Positions 13,604-62,455 of a DNA stretch of 64,000 nt are shown here, one piece after another. The notes beneath the pieces were generated by a model. The model did no database searches, was not told where the DNA came from, and worked only from the letters and a program-made list of their open reading frames with translations. This stretch comes from Caulobacterales bacterium (lineage in GTDB: Bacteria > Pseudomonadota > Alphaproteobacteria > Caulobacterales > Caulobacteraceae). The first letter of the stretch is position 1; every line of letters starts with the position of its first letter. Position numbers and translations under genes: made by a program. Location of the stretch: assembly GCA_038250335.1 (NCBI GenBank), contig JBBSCK010000001.1:625-64624 (forward strand). Reading direction: 5' to 3'.

Positions 13604-15652
13604 ATGACCGCCACGCCCGTCGCGACGCCGTTGAAGCGGGTCGAGTTGACCCTGCGCGCCCTCGTTCTGGGTTGCCTGCTGGCGGTCATCTTCACGGCGG
13701 CGAACACCTATCTGGGCCTCAAGGTCGGGCTGACCTTCGCCTCCGCCATCCCGGCAGCGGTCATCTCGATGGCCATCCTGCGGATGTTCAAGACCTCGAC
13801 CATCTGGGAGAATATGACCGTCCAGACCGTGGCTTCTGTGGGCGGAGCCATGAGTTCGATCATCTTCGTCCTGCCGGGCCTGGTCATGGTCGGCTGGTGG
13901 CTCGACTTTCCGTTCTGGGAATCGGTGCTGATCTGCGTCTTCGGCGGGGTGCTGGGTGTCACCTTCTCCATCCCCCTGCGCCGCGCGCTCGTGGTCGAGG
14001 CCAACCTGCCCTATCCCGAGGGTGTCGCCGCCGCCGAGGTCCTGACCGTCGGTTCGCGTGGTTCAGAACAGACCGAAAGCGCGGTGCGCGAGAACGCGGC
14101 CGGTCTGTGGGTCGTGGTCACGGGCGCGGTCGTTTCCGCAGGCTATGCCCTGCTGGTAGCCGGCCGCGTGTTTGCTGGCGAGGCGGCGCGGTTCTTCAAG
14201 CTTCCGGCGGCCCTGGGCGGCGGGGCGACCGGCCTGGGCTTCGGCATGCAGTTCGCCCTTCTGGGCGCGGGCCACCTGATTGGCCTCAGCGTGGGTCTGG
14301 CCCAGCTGTTCGGCCTGATCCTCGCCTGGGGCATCGCGGTACCGATCCTGACCAGCCCTGACACCATCGCCTGGCTCACCGCCAACGGCATTCCCTCGAT
14401 CGCCACCACCCTGCCGCCGGGTGTCGGGGCCGAGGACCTGGCCGGCACGGTCTGGAGCCGCGAAGTGCGGTTCATGGGGGCCGGGGTCATCGGCGTCGCC
14501 GCCATCTGGACCCTGATCAAGCTGGCGGGGCCGTTGATCGGTGGACTGACCTCGGCGCTTGCCGCCAACGCGCGCCGCAGCCACGGCGAGGCGCTGGACC
14601 GCACCGAACAGGACATTCCCCTGCCGCTGGTGGGCCTGATCTCGCTGGCCTGTCTGGTCGGCATCGCCGGTATCCTCGCATGGTTCGCCCAAGGCAATCC
14701 GACCCTGGCCGGATCGACCGCCCTGCTGGTCGGCGGCGGGCTGGTCTATGTCATCGTCATCGGCTTCGCCGTGGCCGCCATCTGCGGCTACATGGCCGGG
14801 TTGATCGGCTCCTCGAACAGCCCGGTCTCGGGCGTGGGCATTCTGGCGGTCGTGATCGCCTCGGTGCTGATGCTGGGGGTTCTGGCGCTCGCCGGCGTGC
14901 CCGCCGACCCCTCGGTGGTTGCCTTCGCCCTGATCGTGACGGCCATCGTCTTCGCCGTGGCCGTGATCGCCAACGACAACCTGCAGGACCTGAAGACCGG
15001 CCAGCTGGTCGGAGCCACGCCCTGGCGTCAGCAGACCGCCCTGATCGTCGGCGTCGGTGCCGGTGCCCTGGTGATCCCGCTGATCCTGAACCTGCTGAAC
15101 CAGGCCTTCGGGTTCGCCGGTGGCCCCCCCGGGATCGCCGACGAGCCCCTCGCGGCCCCGCAGGCGACGCTGATCTCGGCCCTCGCGCGTGGCGTCATCG
15201 GCGGCGACCTGCGCTGGGACCTGATCGGACTGGGTGCCGTCATCGGTGCCGTCATCATCTTACTCGACGCGGTCCTGAACGCGGCGATGAAGGGCAGGAT
15301 GAAGCTACCGCCGCTCGCCGTCGGCATCGGCTTCTACCTGCCGGCGGCCGTCACCACGATGCTGGTGATCGGTGCGATAGCCGGCTGGGTCTATGACCGG
15401 GCGATCAAGACCACGCGGTTCGCCGATGTGGGTCGCCGTATGGGTGTGCTGCTGGCGTCGGGCCTGATCGTCGGCGAGAGCCTGTTTCTGGTGATGACCG
15501 CCGGCGTCATCGTCTCCACCGGCGACGATGCCCCCTTCGCCATGCTGCCCGAGGGTTCGACCTGGCCGGCGATGCTGTCGGGGATCGCGGTCTTCGCGGG
15601 ACTGACCTTCGCGCTCTACGCCTGGGTGCGGAGCCGGTCTGCGAAGGTCTAG
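13604..15652 (+). CDS. OPT family oligopeptide transporter
   Basis: 682 aa polytopic membrane protein. The N-terminus ELTLRALVLGCLLAVIFTAANTYLGLKVGLTFASAIPAAVISMAILR is characteristic of bacterial OPT transporters. Confidence 0.88.
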   Translation: MTATPVATPLKRVELTLRALVLGCLLAVIFTAANTYLGLKVGLTFASAIPAAVISMAILRMFKTSTIWENMTVQTVASVGGAMSSIIFVLPGLVMVGWWLDFPFWESVLICVFGGVLGVTFSIPLRRALVVEANLPYPEGVAAAEVLTVGSRGSEQTESAVRENAAGLWVVVTGAVVSAGYALLVAGRVFAGEAARFFKLPAALGGGATGLGFGMQFALLGAGHLIGLSVGLAQLFGLILAWGIAVPILTSPDTIAWLTANGIPSIATTLPPGVGAEDLAGTVWSREVRFMGAGVIGVAAIWTLIKLAGPLIGGLTSALAANARRSHGEALDRTEQDIPLPLVGLISLACLVGIAGILAWFAQGNPTLAGSTALLVGGGLVYVIVIGFAVAAICGYMAGLIGSSNSPVSGVGILAVVIASVLMLGVLALAGVPADPSVVAFALIVTAIVFAVAVIANDNLQDLKTGQLVGATPWRQQTALIVGVGAGALVIPLILNLLNQAFGFAGGPPGIADEPLAAPQATLISALARGVIGGDLRWDLIGLGAVIGAVIILLDAVLNAAMKGRMKLPPLAVGIGFYLPAAVTTMLVIGAIAGWVYDRAIKTTRFADVGRRMGVLLASGLIVGESLFLVMTAGVIVSTGDDAPFAMLPEGSTWPAMLSGIAVFAGLTFALYAWVRSRSAKV

Positions 15653-23171: not shown

Positions 23172-23233
23172 CGGGCTATCCCCGGGGGCCGAAGCGGCGC
23201 ATCGTCCGACATCGATCGCCCGGACACCCCGCC

Positions 23234-23626
23234 ATGGCCCGCCTTTCGTTCCTGCTCGCCCTGACCGCCGCCTCTGTCCTTGCGCTCTCCGCGTGCGGAC
23301 AGAACGAACCCGCGTCGGGTCCCGCAGAAACGCCCGCAGGGGCATCCAGCGACACCGGACCAGCACCCGAGATGCCGCTGGACGCCCCGCCGCAGGAAGA
23401 GGCACCGGTCTCCGAAGCTGAACGAACCGGCGTTGCAGAGGGCACCTGCCGCGATACGATCGGCGAGGCGGCGTCTGCCCGGCTGGTCGAGCGCTGCATC
23501 GCGCTCAGTGCCGCGACCCGCCCGCCCTGCAATGCCATCAACCCCTGCGCCCTGATCCAGGACGAGATCGACCGGTCTTGCCGCCAGTTTCCGGCCAACC
23601 AGACACCGGCGGAGTGTGCAGCATAG
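23234..23626 (+). CDS. hypothetical Cys-rich lipoprotein
   Basis: Signal peptide with lipobox LSAC, a Pro/Ala/Glu-rich linker, and a C-terminal 60 aa with 6 Cys. No family recognised. Confidence 0.6.
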   Translation: MARLSFLLALTAASVLALSACGQNEPASGPAETPAGASSDTGPAPEMPLDAPPQEEAPVSEAERTGVAEGTCRDTIGEAASARLVERCIALSAATRPPCNAINPCALIQDEIDRSCRQFPANQTPAECAA

Positions 23627-23668
23627 GCACGGTGCCCGTACTCTGCGGGTTGCGGGGGACGGGCCACG

Positions 23669-23696
23669 AAAAAGACCCCGCTGTTTCCAGCAGGGC
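23669..23696 (-). terminator. intrinsic terminator downstream of pnp
   Basis: On the minus strand: CCCUGCUG-GAAA-CAGCGGGG, an 8-bp stem with one G.U, followed by UCUUUUUCG. It lies 30 nt after the pnp stop (23726). The pairing is better on the minus strand than on the plus strand. Confidence 0.65.
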
Positions 23697-23725
23697 CTCA
23701 TTCATTTCAACGCTGACGCCGAGGG

Positions 23726-38230: not shown

Positions 38231-38256
38231 CGTCGTCTCGATTGACCCAAGGCCGG

Positions 38257-38670
38257 TCAGACTTCGGTATCGGGCTTTCCGGCCATTTCGCGGATCAGTT
38301 CCAGCGCCAGTTTCTGCTGGCGGCTCGATAGCCGGGGGGCCAGGCGGGAAATTTCGATAGTGTAGCGGGTCGAGGGGAAATCGTGGTCAAACCCCGCCCC
38401 CTCGCCTTCCGCCATTCCGGGTTGATCTGCATTCAGGCCCTGGAAGAAGTAGCCGATGTCCACCTTGAAGAAGCGGGCAATGTCCCACAGTTTCGACGCC
38501 GAGATCCGGTTGGCGCCCTTTTCATATTTTTGAATCTGCTGGAAGGTCAGCCCCAGCGCCCGACCCAGATCGCTCTGGTTGTAGCCAAGGCTGATGCGCT
38601 TCTCGCATACCCGTCTTCCCACATGACGGTCCACTGGATGGGGTCCGTCCTCGCCGACACCTCTAGCCAT
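38257..38670 (-). CDS. XRE-family helix-turn-helix transcriptional regulator
   Basis: HVGRRVCEKRISLGYNQSDLGRALGLTFQQIQKYEKGANRISASKLWDIARFF is the common alphaproteobacterial Cro/C1-type HTH pattern. Start at ATG 38670 (checked). Confidence 0.8.
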   Translation of the reverse strand: MARGVGEDGPHPVDRHVGRRVCEKRISLGYNQSDLGRALGLTFQQIQKYEKGANRISASKLWDIARFFKVDIGYFFQGLNADQPGMAEGEGAGFDHDFPSTRYTIEISRLAPRLSSRQQKLALELIREMAGKPDTEV

Positions 38671-38891
38671 GTCTCGTCTGTCGCCACTTCTATTAGAACG
38701 TGACCGTTCCAATGCACCCGTCTGCACAGACTGTCATTCAAATTCCGGGAAATAGCGATTACGCGAGCGCACGTTCGTCTGAGAACAACCGTTTAGTGGT
38801 TCTGGCGAAGGCGTGAAGCCGGTGCCAGGCCGTGGTCCCGACCCGGGGCGAAAGTCCCCGGAGCAGCCAGACGCGACCGGGTCCGTCGCTG

Positions 38892-45774: not shown

Positions 45775-46239
45775 CTACGCCAGATCCTCGATCTCGGCGT
45801 CGGTCAGTTCACCGGGGACGATGGTGACCGGCAGCTTGCGCCCGCCCAGAGCCCCCTGTTTCACGACCGCAGAGACCAGCGGCCCAGGTCCCCGGGAGCC
45901 GCTACCGGCCGCCAGCACCAGGATCTTGATCTCGGGATCCTCGCTGACGACCTTGCGGATCACCGCCAGGGGCTCGCCTCGCTCGATCAGGAAAAGCGGA
46001 GCGGCCCCCGACCGCTCGCCCGCCTCCTCGCCCAGCCGGGTCAACAGGGCCTCGGCCTCGGCGCGCTGCTGACGCTGGATTTCCTCGCGGACTCCGGACC
46101 AGTGCTCGTCCGAGCCCCCCGGCATGATGCGCAGCAGAACCACCCGGCCGCTGGTCGAACGCGCCCGGCGGGCCGCGTAGCGCAGCGCCGCCTCGAACTC
46201 GGGGCTGTCATCGGCGACGACGAGAAATTTCCTGGGCAT
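45775..46239 (-). CDS. universal stress protein
   Basis: KFLVVADDSPEFEAALRYAARRA...VLLRI and the C-terminal LVLAAGSGSRGPGPLVS..PVTIVP are a USP-A fold pattern. The start overlaps the GDH stop by 1 nt. Confidence 0.8.
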   Translation of the reverse strand: MPRKFLVVADDSPEFEAALRYAARRARSTSGRVVLLRIMPGGSDEHWSGVREEIQRQQRAEAEALLTRLGEEAGERSGAAPLFLIERGEPLAVIRKVVSEDPEIKILVLAAGSGSRGPGPLVSAVVKQGALGGRKLPVTIVPGELTDAEIEDLA

Positions 46240-49200
46240 CAGGCTGACCCGATGACGTGACGGATCTGGCCGTTGGCGATGGTCAGCTTGGCGAAGGTCC
46301 AGCCCGTCCCGGAGGCCTCGATCTCGTCCACTGCGGCGCGGACGCCCTCAACGACTGTCTGGCGAGCCCCGATCCAGGCATCCACAGCCGCCTCGGCCGC
46401 CGCCTCGCTATCGCCCACTTCGGGATCGGAGGCCGTGGCCACGGCCCGGGTCAGGGTCACCTGCTCGACCATCAGATCCTCCATCAGCCGACGCACGGCC
46501 AGCCGGTCGAAATGATCGCCGGACGGTACGGCCCCGGCGGCCGCCCTGAGCCGATCAAAATCGAACGCCGCCCCGACCTGGTGATACAGCCGCGCCATTC
46601 TCGGTTCGGACCAGCCGCTGTCGCGCGCAAGATCGCCGATATCGGCCGTTGCAACCAAGGGCCGCAGCATGGAGACCACCCGGGCGAGGTCCTCGCCCAC
46701 CCCCATGTCGGCAAACCGCTTCAGCCGCGCCTCCAGCCGCTGCTGTTCGAAGCGGGACAGGACGTCCCCGCCTTCCTTGCGCAGGGCGTCTGCTGCGGGG
46801 CGGTAGGCCGAAATCAGCCCCGCGACGCTCGCCCCGGCGCGCCCCGCCCGGCGCGCCAGCCAGAAGGTCTGGCGACGCAGCACGGTGGCGATCTCCTGAT
46901 ACAGGGCCGTCTGGGTCTCGGCCGGGACCTTCAGGTCGAGGGCGCTAACGGCATCCCAGGCCTCGTCGAGCCGGAATACTTGCCGCGCCGCCTCGAAGGC
47001 GATGACCAGGGCGGTCGTGTCGCAGCCGGCTGCCGCGCGCAGCCGGTCCGGGAAGGTCGGACCGGCCAGGTTGACGATCTCGTTGCAGAGTACGGTGGCC
47101 ACGATCTCGCGCCGGAGCCGGTGGCCCCGCATCTGGTCCTCGAACCGGGCCAGAGGCCCGGGGAAATAACGGACGAGGGTCGCCTCAAAGAAGGGGTCTT
47201 CAGGCGCACGCGAGGCCACGATGTCCTCGGCCAGTCCGAGCTTGGAATAGGCCATCAAGACAGCCAGTTCCGGCCGCGTCAGGGCCTGACCCGCAGCCTT
47301 CATCTCGCCGATGCGGATGTCACCCGGCAGGCCCTCGACCTTGCGATCCAGCTTGCCCCGGGCGGTCAGTGCCTGCATGAATCTCTGCTGCTGATCCAGC
47401 GCGCCGACGCCTTCTGCCTGTTGCAGCGTCAGGGCCAGGGTCTGGTCGTAGTTGTGGGCCAGAACCTTGAGGCCCACTTCCCCGGTCATCGACGCCAGCA
47501 GCGGCACACGCTCTTCCAGAGGCAGGACGCCGTTGGTGATGGCCGAGCCGATCAGGATCTTGATGTTGACCTCATGGTCCGAGGTGTCCACGCCGGCCGA
47601 ATTGTCGATGGCGTCGGTGTTCATGCGCCCGCCCGCCGCCGCAAAGGCGATACGGCCGGCCTGGGTGAAGCCCAGGTTGGCCCCCTCGCCCACCACCCGC
47701 ACCCGCAGTTCGTCGGCATTGACCCGCAGAGCATCGGTGCCCTTGTCCCCGACCTGGGCGTCGGTCTCGGCCGCCGATTTCACATAGGTGCCGATACCGC
47801 CCAGATATAGCAGCTCCGTCGGGGCCTTGAGGATCGCGCGGATCAGGCTGACGGGGTCGAGGGCCTCGTCGGCGATGTCCAGGGCTGCGCGGATTTCGGG
47901 CGTCAGGGCGATCGACTTGGTCGAGCGAGAGAAGACCCCGCCCCCGGCCGATATCTTCGCCTTGTCATAGTCCTGCCAGGACGAACGCGGCAGCTGGAAC
48001 AGACGATTGCGCTCGTCCCAGGACGAGGCCGGATCCGGGGTCGGGTCGATGAAGATGTCGCGGTGGTCGAAGGCGGCGACCAGCCTCGACGCCTTCGAGA
48101 GCAACAGGCCGTTGCCGAATACATCGCCCGACATGTCGCCCACGCCGACGACGGAGAAGGGCTCGGTCTGGATGTCCTTGCCGAGCTCGCGGAAATGGCG
48201 CTTGACCGCCTCCCATGCCCCTCGCGCGGTGATGCCCATGGCCTTGTGGTCATAGCCGACCGAACCGCCGGAGGCGAAGGCGTCGCCGAGCCAGAATCCA
48301 TAGTCGGCCGATACTCCGTTGGCGATATCGGAGAAGGTCGCCGTGCCCTTGTCGGCGGCGACGACCAGATAGGGATCGTCGCCCTCAAAGGCGATCACAT
48401 GGGCGGGGTGGACGACCGTCCCGTCGGCCGCGATGTTGTCAGTGATGTCCAGAAGCCCGGACAGGAAGGTGCGATAGGCCCGGATGGCCTCGGCCTGCTG
48501 GGCGTCGCGGTCGCCGCCGGCGCGCACGATGCCCGACAGGTGTTTGGGGAAGAAGCCGCCCTTGGAGCCAACCGGCACGATGACGGCGTTCTTGACCTGC
48601 TGGGCCTTGACCAGTCCCAGAACCTCGGTGCGGAAATCGTCGCGCCGGTCCGACCAGCGCAGGCCGCCCCGCGCCACCGGCCCGAAGCGCAGATGCACGC
48701 CCTCGATGTGCGGCGCCCAGACGAAGATTTCGCGATAGGGCTTGGGCAGGGGCAGCTCGTCGAGTTCGCGCGAGGCGATCTTGATAGAGATGTGAGGCTT
48801 GAGGGTCCCGTCCGGGGCCGTCTGGTAATAGTTTGTGCGCTTGATCGCACCGATCAGGGCCGAGAGCCGCCGCAGCGACCGGTCGTGGTCAAGCGAGGCG
48901 ACTTCCATCAGCAGGGCATTGATCCTGTCGGTCTGTTCAGCGCACCGGACTTCTCGGTCACCTGCCGAGCCCCCCTGCGCGGGATCGAAGCGGCAGGCGA
49001 ACAAGGACAGCAGGGCACGGGCGATGGCCGGGTGGTCACGCAGTGCCTCCTCCTGGACCGCCTGGGAGGGGTCCAGCCCGGTCTGCTGGCGATAGTGGGC
49101 GAGGGTGCGGATCAGCGCCGCCTCGCGCCAGCCGACGCCCAGTTCCAGCACCAGCCGGTTGAATCCGTCGCTTTCGGTCCGACCGTCCCAGACGGCCGAG

Positions 49201-51164
49201 AAGGCCGCCTCGAACGGGCCCCTGACATCGGCGAAAGCGAGCGAGGCTCCGCGTGGATCCTCCAGCAGGAATTCGTGAACATGGATTTGGCGGGCCGGCC
49301 CCGCCTGGGCCGCCGGGCGGATCGCGTGGCCGAATTCCTCCAGTGTCTTCAGTCCCATATCCGCCAGGATCGGCAGGACGTCGGACAGGGGCACGGCGGC
49401 CCCCCGTCGATAAAGTTTGAACCGGAACTGCAGCGGCGTATCCGCCGCCGTCCGGAAGGCTCGTACGGCGATCGGCTCTCCGCCGCCCCCCGCTTCACCG
49501 GCCTCTCCCGAAGCGTTCAGGCGGTTGATTTCCTGCAGGTCCGCCACGGCCTCGGCCGCGTCATAGCGCTCGCGGTAGCCGGGCCCGAAGGCCTCGGCCC
49601 ACCACGTGCTCAGGGCGTTGATGGCGCTCTCGTCAATATCGCTGGCGCGCAGGGCCCCCTCGAACCGGTCGACCCAGCTCCGTCCGGTCTCGATGATCTC
49701 GGCGTCAAGGGCGGCCGGATCGGGGATGGGGTGATCGCCGGGCGTGACGCCGATGATATAGTGGATGCGCACGAGCGGCGCGTCCGACAGCTGCGGATAC
49801 CAGGCCGACACCCGCCCGCCCCAGGCCCGGGCCAGGATCCGGCCGATCCGTTCGCGGACACTGGCGTCGTACCGCTCGCGGGGGACGAAGGCCAGGACCG
49901 AGACGAAGCGGTCAAAAGGGTCCTTACGCGTGAAGGTCTTGATCCGGGGACGGTCGTAGAGGTGCAGGATCCCCAGAGCCGTGGTCAGAAGCTCGTCCTC
50001 GGTGATCTGGAACAGCTCGTCCCGGGGATAGTTTTCGAGGATGTTCCTGAGCCGCTTTTCGTTGTGGCTGCCGGGGATCCTCGCGGCCCGCTCGAGGGCC
50101 TTGGCAACCTTGCGGCGGATCAGCGGCACCTGGGACGCCGCGAGGTCATAGGCCTCGGCTGTGAACAGCCCGACGAAGCGGGTTTCTCCCGAGGGTCGTC
50201 CATCGTCGCCGTAACGTTTGACCCCGACATAGTCCATGTAGGCCCGGCGGTGGACCCGGCTGCGCAGATTGGCCTTGGCCACAGTCACGGGTTCGCTGAA
50301 GTCGATCTGCCGCTTCATCTGGGCGGTCAGCACGGCGGGTTCCGACGTCCGGCGAAGGACCGTCCGTTCCGGGTCGCGCAGCACACCGACGCCCGCCGAC
50401 GCCTGATCCAGCGGTGCCTCGGCTGCGTAACCCCCATCGGGCGTGCGCGGATAGTCATAATCCCGTGCGCCCAGGAAGACGAAATGGTCGTTGCTCAGTG
50501 AGCGAAGGAAGGCGAGGTTCTCGGCCACAATCTCGGGATCGATCCCTGCGGGGCAGGCTTCGAGATGGGCCACGGATCGCTGCATCAGATCCCGCATGGC
50601 CGGAAAGTCGGCCACGGCCGCATGGACGTCGGCGAGCGTCTGCTCGACGCCCGCAGTCAGCGCCGCGCGGCGCTCGGGGGGCAGGGGATCGATCACGATC
50701 ACGATCAGGGATTCGCGCGTATCGTCGTCCGCAGCCCGTCTTGAGCCGTCGGCCTCGCGCGCCACGGGGGGCACGGGGTGAAACAGCGCGCGGACAGAGA
50801 CGCCAGCATCGGCCAGTTCGCCCATCAGACTGTCCACCAGGAAGGGCTTGTCGTCCTGGACGATCTGCAGCACGTCATAGGGAGTCGCACGCCCGTGCGT
50901 GGCGGACAGGGGCTTGACCACGACCCTGGGGGCCTCGCCGGGATCGCGCCGCTCGGCCCAGCGCCAGGCGTCCGCCAGAAGCGCGCCGACGTCGTCGGCC
51001 GCAAGTTCCGGTGTTTCGTCCTCGGCATAGTCCTCACAGGCTTGCTCGAGGAAGGACTGTTCCAGACTGTTGAGTGCGCCGCCGTCCCCCAGGGCCACCT
51101 TGAAAGCCCGCTGCAGTGCCTCCAGGTCGGAGGGCCGGGAGAGGGTGCGCGATGAACTGGACAT
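46239..51164 (-). CDS. gdhB: NAD-specific glutamate dehydrogenase, large (about 180 kDa) class
   Basis: 1641 aa from ATG 51164 (checked). The catalytic core region VPVGSKGGFFPK...VVAADKGTATFSD.ANG...GYDHKAMGITARGAWE...VGVGDMSGDVFGNG matches the large NAD-GDH family. Confidence 0.93.
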   Translation of the reverse strand: MSSSSRTLSRPSDLEALQRAFKVALGDGGALNSLEQSFLEQACEDYAEDETPELAADDVGALLADAWRWAERRDPGEAPRVVVKPLSATHGRATPYDVLQIVQDDKPFLVDSLMGELADAGVSVRALFHPVPPVAREADGSRRAADDDTRESLIVIVIDPLPPERRAALTAGVEQTLADVHAAVADFPAMRDLMQRSVAHLEACPAGIDPEIVAENLAFLRSLSNDHFVFLGARDYDYPRTPDGGYAAEAPLDQASAGVGVLRDPERTVLRRTSEPAVLTAQMKRQIDFSEPVTVAKANLRSRVHRRAYMDYVGVKRYGDDGRPSGETRFVGLFTAEAYDLAASQVPLIRRKVAKALERAARIPGSHNEKRLRNILENYPRDELFQITEDELLTTALGILHLYDRPRIKTFTRKDPFDRFVSVLAFVPRERYDASVRERIGRILARAWGGRVSAWYPQLSDAPLVRIHYIIGVTPGDHPIPDPAALDAEIIETGRSWVDRFEGALRASDIDESAINALSTWWAEAFGPGYRERYDAAEAVADLQEINRLNASGEAGEAGGGGEPIAVRAFRTAADTPLQFRFKLYRRGAAVPLSDVLPILADMGLKTLEEFGHAIRPAAQAGPARQIHVHEFLLEDPRGASLAFADVRGPFEAAFSAVWDGRTESDGFNRLVLELGVGWREAALIRTLAHYRQQTGLDPSQAVQEEALRDHPAIARALLSLFACRFDPAQGGSAGDREVRCAEQTDRINALLMEVASLDHDRSLRRLSALIGAIKRTNYYQTAPDGTLKPHISIKIASRELDELPLPKPYREIFVWAPHIEGVHLRFGPVARGGLRWSDRRDDFRTEVLGLVKAQQVKNAVIVPVGSKGGFFPKHLSGIVRAGGDRDAQQAEAIRAYRTFLSGLLDITDNIAADGTVVHPAHVIAFEGDDPYLVVAADKGTATFSDIANGVSADYGFWLGDAFASGGSVGYDHKAMGITARGAWEAVKRHFRELGKDIQTEPFSVVGVGDMSGDVFGNGLLLSKASRLVAAFDHRDIFIDPTPDPASSWDERNRLFQLPRSSWQDYDKAKISAGGGVFSRSTKSIALTPEIRAALDIADEALDPVSLIRAILKAPTELLYLGGIGTYVKSAAETDAQVGDKGTDALRVNADELRVRVVGEGANLGFTQAGRIAFAAAGGRMNTDAIDNSAGVDTSDHEVNIKILIGSAITNGVLPLEERVPLLASMTGEVGLKVLAHNYDQTLALTLQQAEGVGALDQQQRFMQALTARGKLDRKVEGLPGDIRIGEMKAAGQALTRPELAVLMAYSKLGLAEDIVASRAPEDPFFEATLVRYFPGPLARFEDQMRGHRLRREIVATVLCNEIVNLAGPTFPDRLRAAAGCDTTALVIAFEAARQVFRLDEAWDAVSALDLKVPAETQTALYQEIATVLRRQTFWLARRAGRAGASVAGLISAYRPAADALRKEGGDVLSRFEQQRLEARLKRFADMGVGEDLARVVSMLRPLVATADIGDLARDSGWSEPRMARLYHQVGAAFDFDRLRAAAGAVPSGDHFDRLAVRRLMEDLMVEQVTLTRAVATASDPEVGDSEAAAEAAVDAWIGARQTVVEGVRAAVDEIEASGTGWTFAKLTIANGQIRHVIGSA

Positions 51165-51382
51165 GGGCAGGGTCTCGTATAGCACGCGGCCAGGGCCGCC
51201 GGTTCTGGGCCAGACGCTATCGACCGTTCGTTGCCAGGGTGTCACCGAACGGGCGCGTCCCGCCCCTTTGGGCTGGATAGGCCGGGCTTGGACGCGCGGG
51301 AAGGGCGGAAAACGACAAACACCGTCTCGCCGGTCCGGAATCCTGAGACTGATCGCCGTTCATGAACCCCGGCACGCCCGTG

Positions 51383-56747: not shown

Positions 56748-57242
56748 ATGACCGATGTTACGCCCGCCGAACCCAATGGTTCCGCCCCGACCAGCCAGCC
56801 GCCCCTGCCGGGCTTCCGAATCCTGGCCCAGTACGTCAGGGACCTGTCGTTTGAAAACCCGAAGGCTCCCGACAGCCTGCGCATCGAGGGCAAACCGCAG
56901 ATCGACATGGGCGTGGAGCTGAACGCCCAGGGTCGCCCTGACGGGCTGTTCGAGGTTGATATCAAGCTCTCGATCAAGGCCGCCACGGCGTCGTTGGCCG
57001 TGTTCCAGGTCGAACTCCTGTACGGTGGCCTGTTCCAGCTCTCCGGCATCGCCGAGGCTGATATCGAGCCGCTGCTGCTGATCGAATGCCCGCGCTACCT
57101 GTTTCCCTATGCGCGCGAGATCGTCGCCCGGGCGACGGCCGACGGGGGCTTCTATCCCCCCTTCATGCTGGACCCGATCGATTTCGCCGGCATCTATTCC
57201 GCCCGCATGCAGCAGCAGGCCCAGCCCGGCGGCGCTGCCTAA
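56748..57242 (+). CDS. secB: protein-export chaperone SecB
   Basis: ORF trimmed to MTDVTPAE (ATG checked at 56748). [16 protein letters not shown]...[35 protein letters not shown] is a canonical SecB sequence. Confidence 0.95.
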
Positions 57243-58604: not shown

Positions 58605-59446
58605 GGGGTCGACCCGGGCCCCGGTGCCCCCAGATGGGCGAGCAGCAGCGGTCGGGGGTCGAGATCGGGCTGCGGAACACCGAAGATGGCTTCGAACGAC
58701 GGTCCGGCCTGCCCGATCAGCATGGCGAGACCATCCACGGTCAACAGCCCCGCCTGGCGCGCCGCGCCGAGGAAGGCGGTCTCAACCGGCCGGTAGGTCA
58801 TGTCCATGACCACGGTCCCGGGGTTCAGATCCTTGAGGTCAAGCTCCGGCCGGATACTGAGGGCGTTCATCACCAGGGCGGCGCCCTCGAATGCAGACGG
58901 TCCCACAGCCACCGATACCGACGCGCCCAGATCCGCGGCAAGAGCTTGGGCCCGCTCGCGGGTGCGGTTGACGATCCGGACCCGGGCCCCGGCCCAGACG
59001 AGGGCGGCGGCAGCGGCGCGGGCAGCACCACCGGCTCCGAGGATGACAACCGTTGCACCCGGCAGGCTCAGGCTCGGGGCCTGTTCCCGCAGCGCCAGCA
59101 GCAGGCCAAGGCCGTCGGTGCTGTCGGCCAGCACCCGGCCGTCCCGAAACACCAGCACATTGGCCGATCCAGAATCCCTCGCCGTCACGGAGGCTTCGTC
59201 GCAAAGAGCGAAAGCCTGTTCCTTAAACGGCGCCGTGACATTGATCCCCGCCAGCAGACCGGCCCGGCCTGCTTCGACCAGGACGACAAAGCCGGCATGG
59301 TCCCTCGGGGCGAAGGAGGCATAGACGGCGTCCAGCTCGGCAGCGGCGATCCAGGCGTTGTGGATAATGGGGCTGAGGGAATGGGCGACCGGATTCCCGG
59401 CAATACCGCCGACCACGGCCGCCCCGGTGATCGCGACGCGTTTCAT
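58601..59446 (-). CDS. aroE: shikimate dehydrogenase
   Basis: ORF trimmed to MKRVAITG (ATG checked at 59446). [41 protein letters not shown]. The start overlaps the maf stop (ATGA). Confidence 0.9.
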
Positions 59447-60051
59447 GCGCGGATCACTCCAAAGCGGCGCAACTGGTCCAGAACAGGCCACAGCGGCATG
59501 CCGAGGACAGTGAAATAATCGCCCTCCACGCGGTCGAACAGCTGCGACCCCATTCCTTCCAGCCGGTAGCAGCCCACCGATCCGAGCAGACTCTCGCCCT
59601 CGGCCTCCAGATACGCGTCGAGAAAGCCGTCGGAGAACACGCGCATGGTCAGTCTTGCCGTGTCGGCACCGGACCAGACGATGACTCCGTCCCGGGCCAG
59701 GGCTGCAGCCGCATGTAGCTGATGGGTCCGGCCGCGCAGGTCATTGAGCCTGTCCCTCGCCGAGGCCATGTCCGCAGCCTTGGAGACCATTCTGCCCTCA
59801 ACATCAAGCGTCTGATCCGACCCGAGAACCCAGGCCTCCGGATCCCGCCGAGACAGCGCCAGAGCCTTGGCACCTGCCAGCTCCAGGGCCAGTTCTATCG
59901 GGCTGAGGTGGCCCAGTGACACCTTGAGGGCCCCCTCGTCCACGCCTGAGTCCCCGGTTACAAAGGGAACCCCGGCACCGGTCAGCATCGTGCGACGAGC
60001 CGCGCTGCGGGAGGCGAGGATCAGCTGTTGCGCCGCTGCCTTGCTCACCAA
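59443..60051 (-). CDS. maf: Maf-like nucleoside triphosphate pyrophosphatase
   Basis: LILASRSAARRTML, VLGSDQTL and GSVGCYRLEG. TTG (60051) or GTG (60048) start overlapping the upstream gene end. Confidence 0.9.
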   Translation of the reverse strand: MVSKAAAQQLILASRSAARRTMLTGAGVPFVTGDSGVDEGALKVSLGHLSPIELALELAGAKALALSRRDPEAWVLGSDQTLDVEGRMVSKAADMASARDRLNDLRGRTHQLHAAAALARDGVIVWSGADTARLTMRVFSDGFLDAYLEAEGESLLGSVGCYRLEGMGSQLFDRVEGDYFTVLGMPLWPVLDQLRRFGVIRA

Positions 60052-60914
60052 ACGGCTCCGACGCGACTGGATCGACGTTCGTTCAGAAGGTTGAGGATGG
60101 CTGCAGCCGTCTCCTCGACCGAGCGGCGGGTCACGTCGATCGTCGGCCAGCCCCGCCGTTCGAAGGCCCGCCTAGCCCGGATGGTCTCTTCGCGTACGGC
60201 GTCGGGCTCAACATAGGATGTGGCCTGGGTGGCGTTCATGACTTCGAGGCGATTGCGGCGGATCTGGATCAGCCGGTCGGGCGAGACCGTGAGGCCCACG
60301 ACCAGCGGATTCTTCAACGCAACCAGCCGTTGCCCGTCTTCCTGGCCCGGAACGAGGGGAACATTGGCGGCGCGGACACCCCGATGGGCCAGATAGATGC
60401 AGGTCGGGGTCTTGGACGTCCGGCTGACACCGACCAGAACAACGTCGGCTCCCTCCAGCTGTTCGGCGGTGCCCTGGCCATCATCATGAGCCATGGCGTA
60501 GTCGAGCGCGCTGATCCGGTTGAAATAGTCGTGGTCGAGCGTGTGCTGGGCCCCGACGCGGGTCGACAGGGCCGCGCCCAGATAGCGCGAAAGGGCCCCG
60601 ACGAGCGGATCGAGCGCGCCGATATGGGGCATATCGAGGGCGCGGCAGCCTTCTTCCAGCTGGGCCCGCAGGTCGCGGTCGACGATGGTATGCAGGACCA
60701 CACCGGGGGCTGCAGCGATCTCGCCCAGAACGCGGTCCATCTGTTTGTCAGAACGGACGAGTGCGTAAATGTGCTCGATCGGTATGACCCCATCGAACCG
60801 GGCGGTCACAGCCTTGGCCATGGCGTTCAGGGTCTCACCGGTGGAATCCGACACCAGATGGACATGAAAATAGGTCGCCAGGCGCGAGGCCCCCGCTGGC
60901 CTTGCCGGGCTCAT
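60045..60914 (-). CDS. DUF299 kinase/pyrophosphorylase (PpsR/PDRP-type regulator; RP001-type gene)
   Basis: ORF trimmed to MSPARPAG (ATG checked at 60914). FHVHLVSDSTGETL, VLVGVSRTSKTPTCIYLAHRG and RIRRNR are hallmark motifs. Confidence 0.9.
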   Translation of the reverse strand: MSPARPAGASRLATYFHVHLVSDSTGETLNAMAKAVTARFDGVIPIEHIYALVRSDKQMDRVLGEIAAAPGVVLHTIVDRDLRAQLEEGCRALDMPHIGALDPLVGALSRYLGAALSTRVGAQHTLDHDYFNRISALDYAMAHDDGQGTAEQLEGADVVLVGVSRTSKTPTCIYLAHRGVRAANVPLVPGQEDGQRLVALKNPLVVGLTVSPDRLIQIRRNRLEVMNATQATSYVEPDAVREETIRARRAFERRGWPTIDVTRRSVEETAAAILNLLNERRSSRVGAVW

Positions 60915-60969
60915 GCTCGACCCCGAAAAGGGATAATGACGTGAGGGGGGGGTTGAATGGGCTGATTCC

Positions 60970-60978
60970 TGTGGATCG
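60970..60978 (-). promoter_or_regulatory. best DnaA-box-like 9-mer (CGATCCACA on the minus strand)
   Basis: TGTGGATCG on the plus strand matches TTATCCACA at 7/9 positions. Weaker TCCCC-type candidates are at 61084-61092, 61118-61126 and 61210-61218. Confidence 0.35.
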
Positions 60979-61191
60979 GGCTGGGGGCCAAGGGCGTGCG
61001 TTCTGGGCACCAACGGCTATAGCTCGGGCCCGGCCGTCGGGCGAGCGGGACGAAGCGGGAAAGCGGTGCCGGTCTGGTGTCGATCATCCCCCGTCGCGAT
61101 TGGCGCTCGGTTCGGCCTGGGGAAATTCATAACGAAAGGTAAACGGTACCCAGACCCCGACGGCTCAACGAGCCCTTCCCGGCCCCGTGGG

Positions 61192-61206
61192 TTAATGATC
61201 TGTTAA
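61192..61206. promoter_or_regulatory. CtrA-box consensus TTAA-N7-TTAA
   Basis: TTAATGATCTGTTAA is an exact match to the Caulobacter CtrA full-site spacing. A degenerate ATAA-N7-TAAA lies at 61129-61143. Confidence 0.5.
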
Positions 61207-61417
61207 GGATTGTCCCCGTTTTGGACAGGCGGTCCCACAGGGATGCGAGGCTCAGGCACCACCTCGGGAAAAGACCGGTTCTGGCGCGTATGGAGGGTCG
61301 TCTGTCCCCGGCCTCCCGCCCCCTACTGGCTTCTTCCATTCCTTTTATGATTCTGATCAGAACAAGAGGAGCTCTCCGGGCTTGAGAGCGGACGCATCGC
61401 CCCGTAAAGCCAAGGTC

Positions 61418-62455
61418 ATGAGCACCACGCCGTCCTTGATCCGCGTCCTGCAGGGTGAAACCCTCACACGCCCGCCCGTCTGGTTCATGCGCCAGGCGGG
61501 TCGCTATCTGCCCGAATACAGGGCTCTGCGGGCCAAGGCCCCGGATTTCATCGCCTTCTGCCTGAATCCGGAAATGGCAGCCGAGGCGACGCTTCAGCCG
61601 ATGCGCCGGTTCGGGTTCGATGCGGCCATCGTCTTCGCCGATATCTTGCTGATCCCCCAGGCCTTGGGACAGGACGTCTGGTTCGAGACCGGCGAAGGCC
61701 CGCGTCTGGGCCTGATGCCGTCCGTGGGACATATGCGCGAACTGGCCACGGGTGCAGGGCAGCACCTGCACCAGGTCGGCCAGACACTTAGCCTGGTTCG
61801 TTCGCAGCTTGAGCCCGAGCGGGCCCTGATCGGTTTCGCCGGCGCGCCCTGGACCGTGGCGACCTATATGCTGGACGGGCATCACAACATGATCGGCAAG
61901 GGTGAGCGGGCCACGGCCCGGTCCTACGCCTATGCGGAGCCGGAGAAGGTCGACGCCGTTCTCGAGGTTCTGGTCGAGGCTACCGCTCACTATCTGAAGA
62001 TGCAGGCTGACGCTGGGGCCGATGTGCTGAAGATCTTCGAGAGCTGGGCCGAGGGTCTGCCCGACGATCTGTTTGAACGGCTCGTGCTCAAGCCCCATCA
62101 GGCGCTGGTCGCGCGGGTGCGGGAACTGGGTGTGACCGTGCCGCTGATCGGTTTCCCGCGGGGGTCCGCGCTTCATGCCGTGCGTTATGCCCGCGAGGTC
62201 GAGGTCCAGGGTGTGGCGCTGGATACGGCCTGTTCGCTGGAACGGGGCAGAGAGGTCCAGGCGGTCAAGCCGATCCAGGGCGCGCTGGATCCGCTGCTGT
62301 TGCGTGTCGGTGGTGCGGCGCTGGACCGCAGGGTCGATCAGCTTGTCGAGGCATGGGGCTCCGGTCCATGGATCTTCAACCTGGGCCACGGCATTCTGCC
62401 GGACGTGCCGATCGCTCACGTCGAGCAGGTCCTGAAACGCCTCGGAGCGCAATGA
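61418..62455 (+). CDS. hemE: uroporphyrinogen decarboxylase
   Basis: ORF trimmed to MSTTPSLIRVLQGE (ATG checked at 61418). RPPVWFMRQAGRYLPEYR, FGFDAAIVFADILL and IFNLGHGI. Confidence 0.95.
   Translation: MSTTPSLIRVLQGETLTRPPVWFMRQAGRYLPEYRALRAKAPDFIAFCLNPEMAAEATLQPMRRFGFDAAIVFADILLIPQALGQDVWFETGEGPRLGLMPSVGHMRELATGAGQHLHQVGQTLSLVRSQLEPERALIGFAGAPWTVATYMLDGHHNMIGKGERATARSYAYAEPEKVDAVLEVLVEATAHYLKMQADAGADVLKIFESWAEGLPDDLFERLVLKPHQALVARVRELGVTVPLIGFPRGSALHAVRYAREVEVQGVALDTACSLERGREVQAVKPIQGALDPLLLRVGGAALDRRVDQLVEAWGSGPWIFNLGHGILPDVPIAHVEQVLKRLGAQ

Follow-up and report, generated by a model that had tools for sequence, protein, structure and literature searches.

A probable Cori-type replication origin between a DUF299 gene and hemE in a Brevundimonas-like member of the Caulobacteraceae

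The 503-bp intergenic gap between a DUF299 gene and hemE in the 64,000-nt stretch of contig JBBSCK010000001.1 analyzed here (hereafter the window, in whose numbering all coordinates are given; 2.6 kb of it lie to the right of the gap) is very likely where chromosome replication starts in a Brevundimonas-like member of the Caulobacteraceae, and is orthologous to Cori, the mapped origin of Caulobacter crescentus. We infer origin activity from the homology of position and architecture. An oriC in this gap had been proposed in a first-pass annotation made from the sequence alone, a proposal supported here by the synteny of the locus, by CtrA and DnaA sites footprinted in orthologous gaps, by the highest site density of the window and by parABS close to the gap in relatives. 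The source of the window is an uncultured Brevundimonas-like bacterium, since its HemE protein is identical on four JGI metagenome contigs and has its nearest matches among genomes in Caulobacteraceae and Brevundimonas metagenome-assembled genomes (96% and 91% identity) and in B. bacteroides DSM 4726 (90%).

Gene order around the gap and its counterparts in Alphaproteobacteria

In C. crescentus, Cori was mapped between hemE (CC_3763) and CC_0001, a COG1806 gene (PMC1914354, PMC6393856). The gap in the window shares with Cori its boundary genes, its flanking gene cluster and its size (404 bp for the annotated Cori and 503 bp here), and runs from the start codon of the DUF299 gene (60914–60912, minus strand) to the ATG of hemE at 61418, the two genes being divergent. 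To the left, maf, aroE, coaE and the gene for a DnaQ-type exonuclease are on the minus strand, secB (56748–57242) is on the plus strand, opposite to the other genes of the flanking cluster, and a Tim44-like gene and MltA lie further left; to the right, hemE is followed by hemH and then hemJ/UPF0093. Pfam matches around the gap were to Tim44, DnaQ-type exonuclease, CoaE, AroE, Maf, DUF299/Kinase-PPPase, URO-D and ferrochelatase, and the identity of SecB was verified as well.

The claim that this gene order is that of Caulobacter holds in related loci. When reference genomes were scanned with HemE as query, 80 loci were obtained from Brevundimonas, Caulobacter, Phenylobacterium and Asticcacaulis, which together with four metagenome contigs made up 84 related loci, 77 of them spanning the gap. 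The order MltA, Tim44, SecB, DnaQ, CoaE, AroE, Maf, DUF299 / HemE, HemH was colinear in all of these Caulobacteraceae loci (84/84), and a divergent DUF299–hemE pair separated by 435–547 bp was found in each of those that span the gap (77/77).

Origins linked to hemE have also been predicted or mapped in other Alphaproteobacteria, with hemE/COG1806 as boundary in Rickettsia, hemE/COG1253 in Wolbachia, Ehrlichia and Anaplasma, and a further case in Sinorhizobium meliloti (PMC1914354). These resemble the present gap in their hemE boundary, in combining DnaA boxes with variable numbers of CtrA sites and in lying away from dnaA (PMC1914354), but their AT content is much higher and several of them have a different partner gene. 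The hemE/DUF299 arrangement, which is intact here, appears to be the ancestral state (PMC1914354).

CtrA and DnaA sites and their conservation in orthologous gaps

Described for Cori are five CtrA sites, one of them overlapped by a single IHF site, together with two G-boxes (TGATCCACA) and five W-boxes (TCCCCA), as well as five GANTC sites and an AT-rich region (PMC6393856, PMC4285127, PMC4468827, PMC1914354). The definitions of G-box and W-box used here were taken from reviews, with the W-box consensus from PMC4285127. The corresponding elements of the gap are collected in Table 1, and on recheck against the sequence every motif listed in the first-pass annotation was found at its position.

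Table 1. Coordinates of the candidate origin, its boundary genes and the elements within it.
Feature	Position	Strand	Remarks
DUF299 / kinase-pyrophosphorylase gene (COG1806, RP001/CC_0001 type)	60045..60914	-	left boundary; PF03618 E=3.5e-86
DUF299–hemE intergenic gap, candidate chromosomal origin (Cori-type)	60915..61417		503 bp; orthologous gaps, site density, conserved islands
GANTC site GATTC	60964..60968		1 bp from leftmost DnaA box
DnaA-box-like CGATCCACA	60970..60978	-	8/9 to Caulobacter G-box TGATCCACA; core conserved; TGTGGATCG in the first-pass annotation, coordinates confirmed
Conserved island CTATAGC	61017..61023		invariant in ten closest gaps (10-sequence alignment)
Conserved island GCGAGCGGGAC	61041..61051	-	alignments; in 43/77 gaps
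DnaA-box variant TCATCCCCC	61084..61092	+	within conserved GATCATCCCC (61082–91)
DnaA-box variant TTTCCCCAG	61117..61125	-	exact W-box TCCCCA (61118–61123, minus strand); directly adjoins CtrA site A
CtrA site A, decayed: ATAACGAAAGGTAAA	61129..61143		2 mismatches to TTAA-N7-TTAA; position holds sites in relatives
CtrA site B, intact: TTAATGATCTGTTAA	61192..61206		sole TTAA-N7-TTAA in 64 kb
DnaA-box variant TTGTCCCCG (61210–61218) with conserved tail GTTT..ACAG	61210..61228	+	3 bp right of CtrA site B
DnaA-box variant CTGTCCCCG	61301..61309	+	top conservation in gap; box nearest AT-rich stretch
AT-rich stretch, candidate DNA-unwinding element	61331..61370		65% AT; 2nd most AT-rich 40-mer in window (top 0.04%)
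GANTC site GATTC	61349..61353		within AT-rich stretch
Probable proximal hemE promoter	61378..61411	+	GGGCTTGAG, -35-like TTGAGA (61382–61387), 17-bp spacer, TAAAGC (61405–61410)
hemE (uroporphyrinogen decarboxylase)	61418..62455	+	right boundary; PF01208 E=6.4e-97

The word TTAA occurs only eight times in 64 kb, two of the copies making up the single TTAA-N7-TTAA at site B, and because of this scarcity the analytic expectation for a full site is as low as ~0.001 per window; none was found in 100 shuffles. The full site and the degenerate site at position A had both been reported in the first-pass annotation, and both positions are phylogenetically footprinted, being kept 63–64 bp apart across relatives. 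At position B the TTAA half-sites are constant and the 7-nt spacer varies (TGATCTG, GGGTTTG, CGTCTCG, CGCCTCG, CGACTTG), a combination that is the signature of selection on TTAA-N7-TTAA. Position A in relatives is occupied by TTAACGAAAGGTAAA, with 1 mismatch, or by a full site, for example TTAACAAGGTCTTAA; most relatives have a full or 1-mismatch site there as against 2 mismatches in the window. Site B agrees with the dual IHF/CtrA site of C. crescentus, TAACGCTCTGTT (PMC4285127), at 10/12 positions, five of them half-site bases. Its spacer is not conserved in relatives, no match to WATCAANNNNTTR was seen by eye and no IHF site could be shown.

Alignment with related hemE–DUF299 gaps, one of the checks suggested at the outset, revealed conserved islands on the CtrA and DnaA-like elements. 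Specifically, the window and nine relatives share only 49–63% identity over the gap, as compared with 84–96% for the flanking proteins, and invariant columns in runs of at least 5 numbered 36 vs 0.75 expected (P<=2e-4), the islands falling on the two CtrA positions and on five or six DnaA-box variants. The DnaA-box-like elements picked out in the first-pass annotation are in this way phylogenetically footprinted. The leftmost of them had been scored as 7/9 to the E. coli consensus; its position is right, and it scores better, at 8/9, against the Caulobacter G-box. Its core, TCCTGTGGA at 60967–60975 (reverse complement TCCACAGGA), varies little or not at all in the alignments of 10 and of 56 gaps, and an exact TGATCCACA stands at the corresponding end of the C. 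henricii gap. The island at 61041–61051, also written GCGAGCGGGGA in the alignment list, reads GCGAGCGGGGAC in relatives (reverse complement GTCCCCGCTCGC), a TCCCC-type DnaA-box-like word of which the copy in the window is one C short. The island CTGGGGAAA (61117–25) is the reverse complement of TTTCCCCAG, and the box placed there by the first-pass annotation, TGGGGAAAT at 61118–61126, was confirmed. Two plus-strand boxes further to the right are of one kind in relatives: the box at 61210–61218 is TTATCCCCG in many of them, within the pattern TT[G/A]TCCCCG..TTTC.ACAG (61210–28), and that at 61301–61309 has TTATCCCCG as its 56-gap consensus and [T/C][G/A]TCCCCG as its island pattern. Caulobacter G-boxes adjoin or overlap CtrA sites (PMC4468827, PMC6393856), and the box at 61210–61218 beside CtrA site B parallels this arrangement.

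In terms of counts, TCCCC was found 4 times in the gap vs 0.88 expected (P=0.012) and [TG][ATG]TCCCC 3 times vs 0.33 expected (P=0.005), and of the W-box-like words one is an exact TCCCCA and three are TCCCC[CG] boxes, all four being conserved candidate sites. Single DnaA-like 9-mers are near chance level; TGATCCACA with <=1 mismatch, for instance, occurs twice in the gap and 21 times in the window, and the second 8/9 G-box match of the gap (61078–61086) is not a conserved unit. Such 9-mers are meaningful because they are conserved in orthologous gaps, not by their single counts.

Hexamers were compared between the 77 gaps and their flanks, with no motifs chosen beforehand. The most enriched words contained TTAA (50–230x), followed at 8–27x by TTATCC, TATCCC, ATCCCC, TCCCCA, TCCCCG, TCCACA and GTCCCC, with TCCCC-containing words enriched 8–10x and the GC-rich TCCCCG and ATCCCC 9–10x. 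When every 500-bp segment was scored for literature-defined DnaA and CtrA sites, the gap was the density maximum of the 64 kb, with 4 per 500 bp against an average of 0.34, which puts it in the top 0.5%. As a control, C. henricii gave a score of 10 for its orthologous gap, also the maximum of its locus.

The architecture that emerges is close to that of Cori, with weak non-consensus DnaA boxes of the TGATCCACA and TCCCCA kinds, CtrA sites directly against DnaA boxes, an AT-rich stretch of ~40 bp towards hemE, a probable hemE promoter in or next to the origin and, in relatives, parS a few kb away. The coarse layout in common consists of a minus-strand G-type box at the end towards DUF299, two central CtrA sites that each abut a DnaA box, and a plus-strand TTATCCCCG-type box ~100–135 bp from hemE that is followed by the AT-rich stretch.

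The window's sole perfect E. coli-type DnaA box, TTATCCACA, is at 59359–59367 (minus strand) in aroE, 1.5 kb from the gap. It was considered as a part of the origin and discarded, being absent from 76/76 related loci compared; exact TTATCCACA has two copies in the ~1.5 Mb of those loci, none in a gap.

Position on the chromosome and competing interpretations

Centromere-like parS sites are origin-proximal in bacteria. In the closest relative (locus L005, hemE 96% identical), the right flank consists of hemH, hemJ, rho, mnmE, mnmG, rsmG, parA and parB, all on the plus strand, with perfect parS palindromes (TGTTTCACGTGAAACA) at +4.3, +6.1 and +8.8 kb from the gap (L005 14327, 16073 and 18818). 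Clusters of perfect or near-perfect TGTTTCACGTGAAACA were found 4–10 kb to the right of the gap in 68 loci, within rho-mnmE-mnmG-rsmG-parA-parB; the window itself ends before the first parS, and it is in the relatives that parABS lies within ~10 kb. The proximity of these clusters marks this as the origin region of the main chromosome rather than that of a plasmid. A blastn search of the gap against plasmids gave no match. A crude census of gene strands lends weak support to a fork moving leftward from the gap, with ~85% of the genes between 20.6 and 60.9 kb on the minus strand, as such a fork predicts. Strand-flipping 7-mers and the KOPS-like GGGNAGGG were also compared across the gap and rejected as confounded: the flips are codon-usage words produced by divergent transcription, and GGGNAGGG does not flip.

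A number of observations weigh against an origin at this position. The 61 kb to the left of the gap show a GC skew of -0.002, and the cumulative minimum inside the window is at 47,817, whereas for the whole replicon it had been expected at the gap; skew is, however, dominated by single genes and uninformative at the 64-kb scale, with only 2.6 kb to the right. In 48 loci covering 8–10 kb on each side, skew averaged -0.0125 to the left of the gap and +0.001 to its right and thus differed weakly. Genes at 9.6–20.6 kb are mostly on the plus strand, counter to a leftward fork. As noted in the first-pass annotation, dnaA is not in the window: no DnaA signature motif was found there or, in any of the loci, closer than 10 kb to the gap, and tblastn with an E. 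coli DnaA fragment, run with no positive control, gave none. By these searches the gap lacks the adjacent dnaA of the classical dnaA-linked oriC (rpmH-dnaA-dnaN).

Further points of this kind concern the gap itself. CtrA sites are present as in a Cori-type origin but in smaller number, one intact and one decayed vs five in C. crescentus, with none beside the leftmost DnaA box. None of the G-box matches is exact and a single W-box is, the boxes being mostly T[TG][AG]TCCCCG, not TCCCCA. The two GANTC sites (vs five in Cori) had been correctly located but are neither clustered nor enriched (2 vs 0.67 expected, P=0.14). The gap as a whole is AT-richer than the window (37.8% vs 32.2% AT, i.e. 62% vs 68% GC), though only modestly so. 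As in the basal unwinding system known from Bacillus subtilis and numerous other bacteria, the box at 61301–61309 faces a GC-rich spacer and then the AT-rich stretch, which has a run of 6/7 NAN trinucleotides (61346–61366). The rule for that system asks for at least 3 NAN trios located 0–16 bp from a DnaA box with <=2 mismatches (PMC8287927), and a DnaA-trio element was rejected here, the run being 36 bp from the nearest box (by eye) and not conserved in frame.

Some of these points would fit a gap that serves only for the divergent transcription of hemE and the DUF299 operon and its regulation, with CtrA and DnaA acting there as transcription factors, and the origin elsewhere, for example by dnaA. 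Both proteins are also transcription factors in Caulobacter, promoter-like conserved blocks lie beside hemE, and GC skew gives no backing for an origin at the gap. Five or six DnaA-box variants in both orientations, together with an AT-rich element, maintained over 77 gaps nevertheless exceed what promoters need, and parS clusters lie 4–9 kb away. Moreover, the position is orthologous to a mapped origin inside which hemE promoters lie (PMC6393856), and an origin beside dnaA is not the rule in Alphaproteobacteria (PMC1914354). A purely regulatory role is on balance unlikely.

A location of the origin in another gap nearby, such as the rho–mnmE gap by the first parS, with the hemE gap as a relic or an accessory DnaA-binding region, seems less probable still. 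It would be favored by a second cluster of four literature-defined DnaA 9-mer/W-box matches in L005 at ~14451–15100, between rho and mnmE and near the first parS. This cluster, however, lies beyond the window and is without CtrA sites or any known conservation of gap length and motif layout, DnaA reportedly binds the Caulobacter centromere, and in the Caulobacter control it was the hemE gap that scored highest. Finally, a chance accumulation of motifs in an AT-richer intergenic region of a high-GC genome, to which near-chance numbers of single degenerate DnaA-like 9-mers and of GANTC and the enrichment of AT-rich words expected in any intergenic DNA might point, is effectively refuted by the very low expectation for TTAA-N7-TTAA, by the enrichment of the GC-rich words TCCCCG and ATCCCC and by site positions that are conserved in gaps otherwise so divergent.

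Proposed mechanism, CtrA-site turnover and other features

If the gap is the origin, DnaA would load cooperatively on weak non-consensus boxes, namely the G-box-like CGATCCACA and four or five of the T[TG][AGT]TCCCC type, three facing right and three left. The rightmost and best-conserved box (61301–61309) faces the AT-rich stretch beside the hemE promoter, where the duplex would open; this stretch, which the first-pass annotation had already singled out and which ranks second in the window, is partly conserved as CTTCCTCCATTCCTTTT and is the presumed unwinding site. CtrA~P would bind the intact site B and perhaps, weakly, the decayed site A. Because each CtrA site directly abuts a DnaA box (61210–18 and 61117–25, respectively), it would sterically exclude DnaA in non-replicating cells. 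The left fork would then pass DUF299-maf-aroE-coaE-dnaQ, and the right fork hemE-hemH-hemJ-rho-mnmEG-rsmG-parAB and parS. As a Cori-type origin in a new organism, the gap would be an ordinary relative of the Caulobacter origin and imply no new mechanism. It would give an uncultured Brevundimonas-like genome a fixed origin and chromosome orientation, of use in closing assemblies, in estimating growth rate from peak-to-trough coverage and in reading strand bias.

Across the Caulobacteraceae, the Cori scaffold (boundary genes, gap length and weak DnaA boxes against CtrA sites) is conserved and the number of CtrA sites is not. The gap of L005 has no intact CtrA site (1 and 2 mismatches), and gaps of the B. 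diminuta / B. vancanneytii / B. guildfordensis type (loci L015, L016, L018, L019, L025, L038 and L060, partly L053, with the gap at ~9.5–10.0 kb in most) have no TTAA-N7-TTAA even at 1 mismatch. In these, an extra inverted pair of DnaA boxes, GGGGATAAGG-N4-TT[A/G]TCC, takes the place of position A, and GANTC occurs 6–8 times per ~500 bp vs 0.3–0.7 expected (P 1e-5 to 1e-9). CtrA sites and GANTC were not strictly reciprocal over all 77 loci. A tentative reading is that CtrA control of the origin is evolutionarily labile in Brevundimonas and that the lineage of the window is part-way through a change. If so, the same origin scaffold would have switched within one genus from CtrA repression towards control by DnaA and CcrM methylation. 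In Caulobacter, methylation of Cori is not needed for replication (PMC6393856). Over the whole window GANTC is ~3.6-fold depleted (86 vs 313 expected from shuffles), in line with this genome having a methylation system of the CcrM type.

Immediately upstream of hemE, the conserved blocks GGGCTTGAG and CCGTAAAGCC include what is, from its sequence, a probable hemE promoter (Table 1), although a strict sigma-70 scan made no call at 61378–61411. The word GGCTTGAG is invariant in 10 gaps, and some gaps from Caulobacter and Phenylobacterium have it at -39 to -57. The hemE mRNA may be nearly leaderless, since the ATG follows only 8 nt beyond TAAAGC. A terminator-like hairpin on the minus strand (61371–61389) was rejected, as it is not conserved in the alignment and only GGGCTTGAG is. 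The island CTATAGC is present in exact form in 29/77 gaps, none of them from Caulobacter, and no known origin factor accounts for it.

No Rfam match was obtained in the gap (E<=1) or in the whole window, and a tRNA search was also empty. RNAalifold on both strands of the gap gave no conserved structure: one strand scored -3.2 kcal/mol and the other -15.4 kcal/mol, the latter with covariation counting against it. The sole predicted 'helix' in the gap is formed by two inverted DnaA-box-like words, without covariation. A counterpart of CcnA, an RNA of ~180 nt made from a CtrA-box promoter in the origin (PMC8959179), was accordingly not detected here by Rfam or by conserved structure.

Elsewhere in the window, the cumulative-skew minimum at 47,817 lies within a minus-strand open reading frame of 1668 aa (46239–51245), which produces the minimum. 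The DUF299–hemE gap had been described as the largest non-coding gap, but that at 23172–23725, between convergent genes, is longer (554 bp) and is likewise without coding signal, showing no coding-type third-position GC and no Pfam, tRNA or Rfam match. The interval 38231–38891 is not non-coding, as it contains a gene for an HTH_3 (Cro/C1-type) regulator (38257–38733, minus strand) with a third-position GC of 0.68 vs 0.8–0.9 elsewhere; this locally AT-richer region may be horizontally acquired DNA.

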